A DNA stretch of 64,000 nt, from positions 33,046,001 through 33,110,000 of the forward strand of contig OZ024753.1 in assembly GCA_964016885.1 (NCBI GenBank), written 5' to 3'. Under the pieces are notes generated by a model, which made no database searches, was not told the DNA's origin, and was given only the letters and a program-made list of their open reading frames with translations. The translations under genes and the position numbers were made by a program. The DNA is from Eledone cirrhosa (lineage: Eukaryota). This document shows, piece after piece, positions 7,792-47,981 of the stretch; position 1 is the first letter of the stretch, and every line of letters starts with the position of its first letter.

Positions 7792-8073
7792 TATAATCGT
7801 CGCCAACTACAATAAATATCTAGTATATATATGTGTATATATATATATATATATATATATATACACATATATATATATATATATATATATATATATATAT
7901 ATATACACATATATATATATATATACACATATATATATACACATATATATATATATATATACACATATATATATATATATATACACATATATATATATAT
8001 ATATATATATATATATATATATATATATACACATATATATACTAGATATTTATTGTAGTTGGCGACGATTATA
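7792..8073. repeat. inverted repeat (fold-back) enclosing a (TA)n/acac array
   Basis: tataatcgtcgccaactacaataaatatctagtatatatatgtgtata from 7792 is the exact reverse complement of the sequence ending at 8073. Confidence 0.95.
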
Positions 8074-9483
8074 TATATATATATATATATATATATATAT
8101 ATATATATATCGGCAGAAGGAATAAGAAAAATAATTTACCAAGTAAAGTATCTTCACGAGTTAATTATATTGTAAATACTTCTTTGAACAAGAGCTTTAA
8201 ATACCACTTATGTTTTTCCGATAAAGAATTGGCAAATTGACACCCGAAAAGGCATGAGTAGATAAATAATATATATATATATATATATATATATATATAT
8301 ATATATATATATAAAACATGAGAAGAAAGAGAAATACTGCGTGGTTGCACATGGGTTACATATTATAAAATTAGTCCCTCGTCAGTGATTTGCCAACCAT
8401 CATTGGTATTTCATCGCATTAAACATCATATACCTCAGGTTGGTGCGAGCAATAACTAAAAAAAGCTATTGGGACAAGTGAGTCGCGTAAAGCGAGTGAG
8501 ACAAGTAAACAACATAGAAGGATAAAGGCACACCGAAGATAGGAAAAAAAACAAGCAATATGGTTATCCGGTCAGCATAATCTGGGTGAATTTCATGAGC
8601 GTTCAGAATACAGACCGTCCGACGTGAGTGAGATGTGAGAAAGAAGGAAAGAACCCCACTACCAACGAAACGGGAGGAAGTGAGAAGGGGAGAAACAGAG
8701 AGTGAGTGAGTGGAAGTGTGAGGAAGAGGTTAGTCGAGAGAAAGTGTAACTGACAGAGGGGGCGAAAGAAGGTGAGAGAAACAGAGAGAACGGGGGAGCA
8801 GTGAATATAAAGATCATATACAAAGTTTCATCTTTTGACACGCTGGGAGATTATGAGTTTTAGAGAAAATTTAGGAAAACCCGGACGCAGGAATATAACT
8901 ATTAATATAGTTGATTGGTATAAATAGCTCAGAAAATCGAGTAAAGATCATATAGATGACATAAGTGGTCCGCTGTCGATATGAAGAGCCCAACTCCACA
9001 TTTTTCAGACAACAATGCTCCACCATCTAGAAGTGGCCTTTACTCGATTATCAAAAGCAACCAACTGCACTTGGTGATAGTTTTCAGCGTCTGAGTGTAC
9101 CTATATTTTCTCTCTCACTCTCTCTCTCTCTCTCTATATATATATATATATAGAGGCACCTACATATGAGTGCAAGTGCGGCCTTTTGTGTATGGTTTTT
9201 ATGTAGTCATACGAATTTAATCCACTGTTTAAAATTTCTGCATATAAACATAAAAATATGTAAATTGTATTAGAAACTGAAGCATATTGAATCGTTACTT
9301 AGAATTCTGAGTTTGACGTTGCAGATCATTCAAATGTCTGAAGTAGGAAATGTGTGTGGTAATATATACACATAAACAACATTCGTATGCAAAACTAAAT
9401 ACGATAGTAAATTGACGAAAAAGAAAGAGAAATAGAAAATACGTCATACATTGAATATGTATGACGTCTTTAGGTATAAGGAA

Positions 9484-9610
9484 ATAATTGTTTCTACTTT
9501 TTGACACAAGGCCAGCAATCACCCAGCGCATTACTGGTACTTTATTTTATCGACCCCGTAAGGATGAAAGCCAAAATTAACCTCGGCGGGATTTGATCTC
9601 AGAATGGCAA
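9484..9610 (-). mobile_element. SINE short-tail subfamily, 5'-truncated
   Basis: Same tail and central domain, through cctcggcgggatttgatctcaga (B-box on -). Confidence 0.8.
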
Positions 9611-11611
9611 ATAATACATAATACTGTTTACTAACAAATGATTGTATAATTATATACTAAGTATCATTCTTAGACTGTATTTGAATATATACATTACATT
9701 TAAAATGCTATACTCTAGATTTGAAACTATATTAGAAAGGTACACTAGATGTATTTACGCTCAACAGTGATACTCATACAATAATTGGAGTTTGACATTT
9801 GCGGATTATCCAGTTGATCCAGTTAGATAGGTAAATGCCATAAATTTGAAAAGTTGGTGTTGGGGTGGGGGTGTAAGTTCATCTGAGTGGAGTGACATAT
9901 ACGGCTGTTAGTTATACAAGAAATGCGTGGTCGTCTTATTGAAGATGGTTGTTACGTTTATTCGTCATTTACACGAGTATCGATGTAACATTTATGTTTA
10001 AATTTATTCTAAAATGTTTAACTATGTATACTATATATATATATAATATATATATATATATATATATAATATATATATATATATATATATAATATATATA
10101 TATATATATATATATATATATATATATATATATATATATATATATATATATATGTGTGTGTATATGTATGCATGTATGTATATCAACACATATATACATA
10201 AGAGAGAAAAGGAAAATTTATTATGTACGTGCATGTTTTCTTTCCCCATGTGTTAACAATGTATACTGTAATTGGCAGCTGCAATATACACTAGCAAATT
10301 GCGCAGATGCACGTATTACTCCGGTTCATTGCGTTTCCAGTGAGAATAGAAATAGAAATACCTACATACCTATGCTAATTTACACTACATGCTTAGCAAA
10401 CATGTATCAAAAGCAGGCATATATGAAATAGTGAAACACTTATTTTTTACTTGTCATAGTTTGAAAAAATGTTCAATATTTGTATGGAAATAGTAAATAG
10501 CTTTCCAATGCATTCAACTAATATTTATTGCTCATTCAACTGATTTTCTTCCCTCTTCTACTTTCCATTACTAACATTCCTATTTTTCCACCCTCACGTT
10601 CGCTCTTTATTTCACACATCCCCATACATACGCATTTATGGAGTGTATGTATATATATTGGGAGCTTACAGCCGACAGGGAACTGGCATAAGACAAATAA
10701 CTTCGTCAGACGGAAAGACACTAGGTCTGCTAGCTAGCAACCAGGAACCCCCCAAGAATCCCTCCTTCCAACCTTTTGAAAAAAAAAGCTCATCTGGGGT
10801 GGACATGTATCCTACCACGATTCCCTGTGCAACACCTTTCTCAAAACCATACGAGGCATTACTCACGGAAAGGTGGTGGTGATGTGTGAGTATGCTCGCA
10901 CGCCTATTTGTATATATAAGTATGTATACATGTAAGAATGCAGGAATGTAGTTCTTGTTTATTTTGTTGGCTTTTTTTTATTTTTTTTATTAGAATACGA
11001 ATGCATATCATATCCCATCCCCTCTAAGTAATTTAAATTTCAAACTTTTTCGAAACATTTTAGCAACACATCTATATAACTAAGTTGTTTTTGTTTTTGT
11101 CCTTTCTCCTTTGATAAATAAGATATGATTCGAATGTTTGAAAACAAGACGAAACAGAAATTCAAAGTAAAATATTCATAAAATGTAGTATACAGGCAGA
11201 ATGTAATGTCATCACAACGATATCTTATACCTTTCAAACGTGCACATAAAAGAGTGAACTAAATCTTCTAGTAATAATTTAGTATTTAGTTTCTGTATGA
11301 TGTCCGCACACCAAGCGCGCGCGCGCACACACGCACACACACACACACACACACAAATGTAAGTATGTATGTATACATTATGTGTTATTAATAGTGATTT
11401 TATTTCAAAGTCTCCCCAAAACTACATGTAGTTTCGGGCAAACTTCGAAATATATTGTCACCATTAATAAATATTATTTTGATTTTATACATTTTATACA
11501 CCGTATAAGATCCTGCAATGCAGTAGTTATGCCATTAAAAATGAGAATGTTGCAATCAGCGATATATATATATATATATATATATATGCGCATTTTTTTA
11601 TAACTAAGGGA

Positions 11612-11871
11612 TGATGTGTATGCGTGTGTATGTGTGTGTATGTGTGTGTATGTGTGTGTATGTGTGTGTATGGGTGTGTATGTGTGTGTATGGGTGTGTA
11701 TGTGTGTGTACGTGTGTGTGTGTACGTGTGTGTGTGTACGTGTGTGTGTGTACGTGTGTGTGTGTACGTGTGTGTGTGTACGTGTGTGTGTGTACGTGTG
11801 AGTGTACGTGTGTGTTTACGTGTGAGTGTACGTGTGTGTGTGTACGTGTGTGTGTACGTGTGTGTACGTGC
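11612..11871. repeat. compound (TG)n minisatellite (tgtgtgtatg then tgtgtgtgtacg units)
   Basis: Seen directly. Confidence 0.9.
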
Positions 11872-45825: not shown

Positions 45826-46729
45826 TATATCTCATGAATAATTGTTAATGTGCGAACTAAAATTGGCTATTCTTTGCAGCAAACCTTTATCCACTTCATA
45901 AATATAACTGAATTCTTACTATATAACTCAACCAGACTTTTGACATTTAACTATCGATGATAGTTTGACAAATCTCATAGGTAACGATGTTAAAGGATAT
46001 CAATACTATAATCAACTTATCTACAGTGATCATTATGTATTAAAGCATATCTACACTTACTTAGTTTCATATAGAATTGAAAAGCAAATAGTAATCCCAT
46101 GAGTGGATGTTTTGTTTGGAGGCATTAATGATTTATTTCAATATATTTATAATAGAAAATCTCTAATGTACATCACATATGATAACTCCATTATACACCG
46201 TATATAAAATGAATATCTTTATTTCATATGAGATATACTATGTGTTAAACACACATCAACACACACATTATATATATATATATATATATATATTAGTAAA
46301 CGGAATAGAAAATGCTGACAAATTGTTCACAGTTGAAACATGGTTTAATTAGGAATAAAAGAGTATTAGTGATTGTATGGGTTAGTATTCAGTTGTGGTT
46401 TTAAGTTTTTAAGTTTTTACCGGTTGCGCATTTCTAAATGCTTTTCAAAAATAATTTTGAGATAGAGTGTCCGTGCTGTTTGCTCTGTCTGATTAGTTTT
46501 GGGAATTCTACCTGTTTTTATGTTAAAAAAGTGGCTCCAATTTGCAAAAGTTCTTGTGGTCAAAACAATTTTGATTGGTCGGTAGGGGTCATATGAATAA
46601 AAAATTGGTTTTGCGCCAAGATTGAGAAATGACTATCACAACAAATATGTGTGTGTGTGTGTGTGTAGTAGTAAGGTGTTCGATGTTGTGATAATGGTTA
46701 GCAGCGATGTGTGTCAAATGGCTATTAAG

Positions 46730-46875
46730 GTGTGTGTGTGTGTGTGTGTGTGTGTGTGTGTGTGTGTGTGTGTGTGTGTGTGTGTGTGTGTGTGTGTGTG
46801 TGTGTGTGTGTGTGTGTGTGTGTGTGTGTGTGTGTGTGTGTGTGTGCGTGCGTGCGCGTGCGCGTGTGTGTGTGT
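46730..46875. repeat. (TG)n microsatellite
   Basis: Long near-pure TG run. Confidence 0.95.
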
Positions 46876-47787
46876 GGTGTGTGTGTATATATATATATAT
46901 ATATAGCAGAGTAATTCGTGGTGGCAGGGATGGTCAGTAAGAATGTGTCTGAAAGCAATGGGGGGTATTTTAGCATGTCAAAAGATATTTTTCAGCTTTT
47001 GTCTTATACGGAGAAGCGTGTGTGTGTGTGTATATATAAGTCTCTTTGTATGTTGATGTACGCGTGTGTGTGGGGGGGGGACCAGTATTTTTTCCCCCTG
47101 ATAAAATGGTGTACATTATTCGATTTTTTCAGTAAAATCGGTTCTCTTAATAGAACATCAAAAATCTTAACAAAAAAAGGTGTGAAATGATGTTCACTAT
47201 ATATATATATATACACATACATATATTCACTATATATATATATATATATATATATATATATACATATATACATACATATATATGCACATATATTTTTTTG
47301 TGTTGCACCATAGAACATGTGTGTTTACGTATGTCATTATGTTTATATGTGGGTAGAGATGTATATATATATACACACATATCACTAAAGGTCATTTAAT
47401 TCATGTTAACCCTTTCAGAGCAACACAATATCGATCCCTTCACCCACAACACACCCTTCGCAATTCTCTTTTAATCACAGTTTTTTTACTACCAAAAGAA
47501 AACATTTGATTCCGATCTGATTTATGCAGAAAATATTTTTTTCTTTTTTTTACATTCATTTTAATCGCCATCGCCAACACAGGTCTGGACTCTTTACATC
47601 CCTCCCTATTTCTCTCTGTGTATTCATATATGTATATAAACTATCATAAAAGTTACCCACTGAATTAACACGGACTTACAAGAACTAATAGAAACGTATA
47701 TTGATAAAATATGTGATTATTAAAATATATCAACCATCAGTGATGTTATTCTCTTATGTGTGTATATATATATATATATATATATAT

Positions 47788-47981
47788 ATAGGAAAATGTA
47801 TGAACACGACGGCAGAGCTCAAGCCGTTCTGACGGCTATTTCTGGACTGAAATAGCCGTCGAAACGGCTTGAGCTCTGCCGTCGGGGGCATACATTTTCC
47901 TATTACCCACTTTACTACCCTAAGTATTGAGTACTCTGGTGCGTTATGGTCCATCTGGTTCCTTACCACAACTCCTTCGTT
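47788..47981 (+). mobile_element. short retro-insertion with 55-bp fold-back and hammerhead 3' half, in (TA)n
   Basis: Arms 47788-47842 and 47849-47903 (50/55 Watson-Crick), loop tggact; right arm contains GAAA-cggc..gccg-TC; 3' end shared with 30170-30206. Confidence 0.75.

Follow-up and report, generated by a model that had tools for sequence, protein, structure and literature searches.

Hairpin insertions of a (TA)n-targeting Penelope-like element in Eledone cirrhosa and their proposed origin from paired internal priming

The closest described relatives of the structures considered here are the endonuclease-bearing (EN+) Penelope-like elements (PLEs). In their canonical unit, as presented in the portions of PMC8557442 (Fig. 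2), PMC3846280 and PMC2377424 covered here, an inverted 5'-truncated copy stands head-to-head with a forward copy, and this arrangement is accompanied by a tail at one end, partial tandems, TA-rich targets, and TATA- and initiator (Inr)-like motifs in the pseudo-long terminal repeat (pLTR). Those portions of PMC8557442 and PMC3846280 list the formation of tandem and inverted ends as an open question; the latter also notes TATA and Inr-like motifs in a pLTR and argues that self-priming on an antisense template is required for palindromes of the head-to-head kind. We analysed a 64-kb, (TA)n-rich stretch (the window) of the 3.0-Gb genome of Eledone cirrhosa (contig OZ024753.1, positions 33,046,001 to 33,110,000), which holds four inverted duplications. 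Two of these, at 47791-47980 and 14955-15063, sit in Penelope-like retrotransposon insertions, here termed families A and B. These insertions share the canonical features listed above, and the inverted-copy-plus-tail layout is already published for PLEs. The reading that we favour, at a probability of about 0.6, is that the family A hairpin forms when both cut strands of the TA target prime reverse transcription at two internal sites of the RNA and the two cDNAs, after running off at a predicted start of transcription, become linked head-to-head.

A sequence-only reading of the window had listed inverted duplications at 7792-8073, 14955-15063, 30095-30170 and 47788-47903 and assigned them a common context. 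All four are present at those places, but the shared context holds only loosely, and these real fold-backs are a mixture rather than one system. The folding energy lies below that of every shuffle at the three sites folded (z -18.4 at 47791-47900, -11.1 at 14955-15063 and -8.2 at 30095-30170), while the repeat search of the window was dominated by TA arrays. With family A template positions given as negative numbers counted from the 3' terminus (-1) and leader positions as positive numbers, the segment 47791-47980 represents one of this family's ordinary short insertions. It begins within a (TA)n tract (47763-47790) with a tail-less inverted arm at 47791-47848 (- strand, template -81 to -138), continues with a forward arm at 47849-47900 (+ strand, -132 to -81), and ends with the 80-nt tail at 47901-47980 (+ strand), present at one end only and followed by (TA)n at 47981-48029. 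Together, the arms form a 110-nt hairpin (47791-47900) with a loop of 6 nt and several mismatches. The forward arm holds the 3' half of a type I hammerhead, with GAAA at 47861-47864, stem III, and GTC at 47881-47883. The 37-nt terminus at 47944-47980 is identical in 36 of 37 positions to 30169-30205, just as the earlier reading had it; the hairpin, however, does not directly precede this terminus as was claimed, since about 40 nt of the 80-nt tail intervene.

The involvement of a (TA)n-targeting, hammerhead-bearing PLE family, suspected from the window alone, is borne out by family A, whose terminal 25-mer has 16,173 exact matches in the genome against 0 for its reversed control. Translation of the open reading frame (ORF) in the natural copies L061, L063 and L289 reveals a reverse transcriptase (RT) with a YRDD motif and a C-terminal VIY..YIG endonuclease region; Pfam and PDB sequence searches with the family A protein gave no match, and the RT/GIY-YIG assignment rests on motifs. 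The tail runs directly into leader and ORF, in the order pLTR-tail-leader-ORF, in 7 of 20 loci chosen by RT-region match, exact tail-to-leader junctions number 205 genome-wide, and the pLTR lies in a partial tandem overlapping the ORF start. Among 49 long pattern-matching copies, hammerhead core positions 4, 5, 6, 8 and 9 are conserved in 48-49, whereas position 7 varies; 40 of the 49 have a U3-A8 pair, a form described for PLE hammerheads (PMC4209133, portion covered), and 9 an unpaired C3/A8. An energy fold of the pLTR recovered stem II and not the whole ribozyme, and an Rfam search of the window, which has the 3' half only, gave no hammerhead match and only microRNA-type matches below gathering scores. 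By its ORF, pLTR tandem, inverted copy plus tail, and predicted hammerhead, family A is classed as an EN+ PLE. It appears to belong near the Hydra clade as characterized in the portion of PMC8557442 covered, by motifs rather than by a tree: it has the DKT motif (HSDKTGN) and the CxCX5C linker (CNCPDRSMC), lacks CCHH, and shows CxxC/CxH around the conserved E and N (CNLC before EET and CKH after LLNKK, by eye in L063). The hammerhead, the (TA)n targets and the C-terminal GIY-YIG are likewise shared, whereas family A differs in its RWR instead of RWK (RLRWR, at the N-terminal position where the motif is expected) and in its long hammerhead loop 2. Tandem units spanning -138 to leader +119 were observed at L303/L304, and five tail-to-leader junctions about 273 nt apart at G000:C3:214146640-214147754 suggest a similar array.

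The prediction that palindromes are systematic next to this family holds in a sample of 102 copies, comprising the first 100 genome matches of the terminal 25-mer, all on one contig, and the two window copies. An inverted arm was detected by script in 79 of these, and about 9 of the remaining 23 have one by eye. The systematic hairpin is element sequence with a fixed internal start, its outer end falling at -75 to -82, the edge of the 80-nt tail, in 71 of the 79 arms, which speaks against the earlier proposal of a single (TA)n snap-back for all four palindromes. Genome-wide, the pattern of one subfamily matches 3,372 tail-less ends abutting TA as against 3,107 tailed ends. Across 93 hairpins we found 79 distinct junction strings, of which the commonest, that of the window copy, occurs in 11 and in several subfamilies. 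The junctions differ between copies and are remade at each insertion. A non-autonomous hairpin element, with a master hairpin in the manner of a miniature inverted-repeat transposable element (MITE) or a short interspersed element (SINE), was rejected since the junction is not shared. The hairpins could be taken erroneously for MITEs or microRNA-like loci. Among the fetched loci, a hairpin with a tail of 65-93 nt is also seen in dozens of further families inserted at TA, including family C (L009, L052, L101, L170 and L175), family I (L010 and L160), family J (L096 and L142), and further loci (L026, L042, L076, L122, L155, L178 and L239). Such families are often nested side by side in one tract. 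Separately, the family A fragments L284 and L285 (G000:C3:142371815-142394035) are almost identical, share a flank and lie in opposite orientation some 19 kb from each other, a possible large inverted duplication.

Decomposition of 122 hairpins by alignment places the arm ends at -128 to -146 in 101 inverted and 79 forward arms, and the arm stop is placed at -132 to -143. Hairpins with one short arm often have the other reaching precisely to -138. This base, the A in TTA/GTC or TCA/GTC, belongs to an initiator-like motif, and a TATA-like box starts 31 nt (42 of 49 copies) or 29 nt (7 of 49) upstream of it, the pyrimidine-purine initiator and the TATA spacing being those of the general consensus. 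In family C, TATAAATA lies 30-33 nt upstream of the stop in 8 long copies with differing surrounding bases; of 40 other arms, 39 reach no farther than the predicted +1. Shuffles produce such a TATA-like box in 0.17% of trials for family C and in 1.5% for family A. Core-promoter features of the RNA polymerase II type thus seem to be present at the arm stop in families A and C, and more weakly in I, and the arm stop of family A is predicted to be the 5' end of its RNA. Two other candidates were set aside, namely the hammerhead cut site (about -100), where only a few copies end (L008, L070 and L111), and a spliced 5' exon at -138, as no shared sequence precedes the site. In the literature covered, mostly open-access main texts without supplements, no paper was found that ties an arm stop to a transcription start, and the word "hairpin" is absent from the portion of PMC13282606 covered.

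The behavior of longer copies bears directly on this prediction. Five loci with 14-220 nt of leader stop at -138 or -132, and at five loci leader +93 to +221 is joined straight onto -138. Among 16 copies whose alignment extends 300 nt or more into the ORF, -138 is reached by 11, every one of which continues, and the other 5 end earlier; 3 further ORF copies with an alignment broken at a C run also continued past the site. ORF-bearing copies pass the stop site in 14 of 14 cases, against 7 of 65 for short-class copies in the unselected set, which speaks against a simple pause and is better accommodated by an RNA end. We consider it improbable that -138 is a place where RT pauses at an RNA structure or bound protein, or the end left by a later collapse of the palindrome, instead of an RNA start. 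This interpretation draws on the position of -138 in hammerhead loop 2 beside a 9-nt near-palindrome, on the small deletions and insertions at junctions, and on the instability of long perfect palindromes. Yet a pause should recur at the 5' pLTR of the long copies, all 14 of which pass it; arm-less copies also begin at -138 (L134, L245 and L324); and the family C stop, at the same TATA distance, is located structurally elsewhere, at stem I's base.

In the paired-priming reading, each strand of the cut TA tract would prime one cDNA, the usual start sites being -1 for one and -81 for the other, both cDNAs would run off the RNA 5' end at the predicted start, and the two would then be joined head-to-head by end-joining, a template jump or a local fold-back, so that fold-back possibly acts in the joining step. 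Long and tandem copies would result from RT jumping from the RNA start, or from the use of circular or read-through RNA. In full-length copies the 5' leader encloses both RT start sites, -1 and -81, with TAT following each of them. A purified PLE protein is reported, in the portion of PMC11167929 covered, to cut and extend both strands and to start at two tail boundaries inside the RNA. Copies tailed at both ends (L077) or tail-less at both ends (L062 and L117) fit independent priming. In L068, L126, L167 and L169 the arms differ in a subfamily-diagnostic segment, possibly reflecting two RNA templates in one insertion.

A less probable alternative is that one cDNA primes itself by folding back at a preferred site near -138 and is copied, the copy then joining the other target end, with two-ended priming perhaps supplying only the landing site. 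The two arms are matched in subfamily, with 28 of 84 pairs having identical 15-mers as against 8.3 when permuted; one junction recurs in 11 of 93 hairpins; and 5 symmetric hairpins are centred outside the hot spot where 1.3 are expected (p 0.007), which favours fold-back at least sometimes and counts against paired priming as the sole route. Self-priming has been proposed for PLEs (PMC3846280), cDNA snap-back is seen at R2 junctions (PMC11371274), both in the portions covered, and the two short hairpins at 14955-15063 resemble its products. By itself, however, self-priming gives no fixed outer end at -81, does not account for copies with like ends on both sides, and leaves the TATA spacing and the pass-through of long copies unexplained. 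Moreover, inverted arms may hold sequence that the forward arm lacks, being the longer of the two in L063 (about 2 kb vs 0.46 kb), L176 and many short cases, and for such copies a pure cDNA snap-back fails.

The second element-borne fold-back belongs to a family B insertion at 14456-15863. An inverted RT fragment at 14456-14992 (- strand) corresponds to element 887 to 339 of the natural copy L093 (PF00078, E 4e-4, below the curated cut-off), and the forward 3' part at 15048-15863 (+ strand) carries a broken GIY-YIG endonuclease region (PF01541, E 0.0013, below cut-off) and a pLTR; 613 nt of the element are missing between the two. The pLTR contains a candidate hammerhead-like core at ~15606-15650, and the 56-nt tail at 15808-15863, ending at query 768 or 821, is followed by (TA)n. 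The inverted duplication at 14955-15063 is genuine, but instead of one palindrome it comprises two abutting hairpins: at 14955-15024 about 44 nt at the inverted RT piece's end have been copied again, 14984-15027 matching element 342-385 in the forward sense, and 15025-15063 lies at the 5' end of the forward piece. It sits within the RT/EN inversion junction, some 550 nt away from the hammerhead-like core, and has no TA centre. Copy L093 has a CX4CxxC linker (CIDKKCITC), a CCHH motif (C..C..H..H) as well as GIY-YIG at the C-terminus, and by these motifs family B is assigned to the Neptune/Nematis type, with Neptune and Nematis left undivided. The insertion resembles twin priming with templated junction repair, and at 14955-15063 two cDNAs were probably joined as proposed for family A, each end acquiring a short fold-back. 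Interrupted (TA)n arrays of kilobase size occur at 13387-14455, 15864-17167, 19896-20674 and 58004-60313, the first two of which flank the family B insertion.

The other two duplications of the window are copies of flanking DNA centred on TA tracts. At 30095 a 14-nt flank arm (30095-30108, + strand) is followed by (TA)24 as the fold-back centre (30109-30156) and by its inverted copy (30157-30170, - strand), which a 2-nt overlap joins to the final 37 nt of a family A tail (30169-30205, + strand), a very short arm-less insertion followed by (TA)n. At 7792-8073 the flank-(TA)n-inverted flank order described in the sequence-only reading is present: a 29-nt arm at 7795-7823 (+ strand) is inverted at 8042-8070 (- strand), across an interrupted (TA)n spacer (7824-8041) in which one GTG on the left is mirrored by CAC units on the right. 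Its 26-nt core occurs in the genome only here and in its own inverted copy, whose TATA end overlaps the next (TA)n tract, extending to ~8111. No recognisable element adjoins it, and none of the other loci fetched matches the 150 nt next to it in either direction.

Such TA-centred flank fold-backs do recur, as had been anticipated, but only sporadically, at about 0.5% of TA tracts. A first scan took in 864 kb, made up of the window, 47 regions around family A copies and 33 regions picked without regard to the family. Scores of 8 or more were reached by 19 of its 1,444 TA blocks, where shuffled pairs gave 3-7; about 7 of the 19 look like non-repetitive flank copies, all outside the 33 unselected regions. 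Over all loci, TA-centred inverted repeats occur at 22 of 2,053 TA blocks, against 0 of 336 CA and 0 of 190 GA blocks (p 0.013; shuffles 2-10). The detectors differ and the rates are approximate, the latter scan missing 30095, L080, L147 and L155, which other scans found. Larger examples, of 39-270 nt, lie at L174 6114-6129, L178 8822-8857 (double), L134 near 9485, L147 1984-2001 and L155 256-315. Flank copies abut truncated family A ends at 30095 and L080 and other PLE ends at L157 and L174. Within family A they were found at 2 of 20 arm-less 5' ends (L080, TA-centred, and L079, not), these 20 being 34 script calls minus 14 judged by eye to have arms, as against 0 of ~121 arm-bearing (p 0.019) and 0 of 141 tail ends, with one low-complexity match dropped in each of the latter two sets. 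Of 36 very short copies selected to have TA within 13 nt, the scan flagged 2, both with element-derived arms; that selection excludes longer inverted flank copies.

The idea that free (TA)n ends snap back and copy neighbouring DNA, making all four palindromes one system, draws on the restriction of these repeats to TA blocks and on their adjacency to PLE ends. It is nevertheless very unlikely: the palindromes at 47788 and 14955 consist of element sequence and lack a TA centre, many of the 22 hits arise where the ends of repeats face one another over a tract, and a systematic flank snap-back, as first claimed, is contradicted by its rarity among TA tracts and its absence from arm-bearing insertions. 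The snap-back system of the original proposal is mostly the known PLE layout together with sporadic repair scars. The TA-centred fold-backs are likely rarer scars of a broken TA end that copied its own flank. For the fold-backs at 7792, L147, L155 and L178, which no element adjoins, microhomology-mediated end joining (MMEJ), which repairs breaks at TA repeats with short templated duplications (PMC13645644, portion covered), suffices. At 30095, where numbers are small, the structure likely reflects a second target end that folded on its own (TA)n instead of priming on the RNA, copied 14 nt of flank, and was then joined to the 37-nt cDNA. That at 7792 is likely to be the same fold-back without a cDNA, after an abortive PLE cut or an ordinary TA break.

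Several further observations weigh against the paired-priming reading. The 14 of 14 pass-through also speaks against every template starting at -138, and with 0 of 14 full-length copies stopping there a second template form or efficient jumping is needed. The TATA-like box of family A overlaps hammerhead stem II, which could account for its conservation; family I lacks a clear TATA, and its 22 arms show extensions of 0-9 nt (17 nt in one); and a weak test for a cap-derived G, in 43 arms with a non-native base at -139, gave G in 16 and C in 25. The link between flank fold-backs and PLE cuts rests on 2 of 20 copies, or 1 of 20 if TA-centred (p 0.10 vs background). Lastly, the unique junctions at 30157-30205 and 14955-15063 are not bridged by any listed contig or read piece, holes there being uninformative.

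The reads come from three runs of one sample, possibly the source of the assembly and not independent, and from a fourth run of restriction site-associated DNA (RAD) reads of another study, which supports the family A tail and TA context and not the hairpin. An origin of the palindromes as assembly or fold-back read artefacts might be entertained given the unbridged junctions, the bin 14976-14991 at zero depth in all four runs, and the absence from the three one-sample runs of several bases that are private to the family B copy in the window. We regard this as extremely improbable, for the arms at 47788 and 14955 differ by several bases, the boundaries are family-specific in thousands of copies, dozens of other families have the same layout, contigs break at palindromes, and the bin of the inverted flank copy, at 30151-30161, has approximately single-copy depth (7-9.5, unique flank 5.5-5.9) in the three runs of one sample. 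Diverged arms and fixed boundaries mean that the family-wide hairpins cannot be read artefacts.

A broader proposal, to which we give slightly less than even odds, is that PLE miniature hairpins in general are integrated pairs of strong-stop cDNAs, with internal priming on both strands close to the 5' end of the RNA, run-off at the start, and tandems built by jumping from it. If so, the head-to-head inverted repeats, tails and partial tandems of PLEs would be explained by two sense-templated cDNAs, which would remove the need for self-priming on an antisense template. The positions of PLE transcription starts across the genome could then be read from hairpin centres, and a TA-centred flank fold-back would be what results when the second priming event fails. 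The genome holds thousands of PLE insertions from many families, for which the arm stop predicts an exact RNA start, and a promoter-anchored stop makes the origin of PLE inverted ends directly testable.

Other features of the window include a long interspersed element (LINE)-type element at 17244-19895 (- strand, pieces to ~20720), with a 583-aa frame containing an RT (PF00078, E 7.6e-28) and an endonuclease-like piece upstream, which is split by TA-rich arrays. A high-copy SINE-like family is present at 33-102, 7188-7297, 9483-9610, 35536-35748, 40743-40839, 41840-42249, 51567-51686 (-) and 63689-63842 (-), and a 68-nt palindrome at 41983-42050, between two adjacent copies, is made of this family's sequence. 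Imperfect hairpins at 11385-11470 and 33015-33074 had no match in other loci at the threshold used. A 126-aa frame at 30440-30820 (-) resembles a retroelement C-terminus by eye, with no Pfam match, and an N gap occupies 60314-60513.

Twin priming of L1 elements yields an inversion with a deletion, as at 14456-15863, with non-overlapping arms, whereas the arms of family A overlap almost fully. Minus-strand strong-stop DNA of retroviruses offers an analogy only: it is primed near the RNA 5' end, runs off and is transferred, but in the present case there is no tRNA primer, integrase or pair of long terminal repeats, and the short product is target-tied and integrated. The canonical EN+ PLE unit, in the portions of the above papers covered, has a tail of 30-40 nt, as against 80 nt in family A, 56 nt in family B and ~65-93 nt in the other families, and unlike it most copies here are miniatures of about 200 nt with arms stopping at one base. 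R2 5' junctions (PMC11371274, portion covered) share inverted copies of cDNA or nearby target; there the cDNA 3' end primes, while at 30095 either a cDNA end or the target's own TA end is possible. MMEJ at TA breaks, in the portion of PMC13645644 covered, shares the use of TA tracts as break sites. A further parallel is Poseidon PAc, for which the portion of PMC11167929 covered does not address inverted arms or a run-off point and describes two RT starts that bound the tail inside the pLTR-ORF region, as in family A, with both target strands cut and extended and hammerhead cleavage not needed. The Poseidon PAc starts are made without target homology, whereas the TAT that follows both family A sites matches a (TA)n primer.

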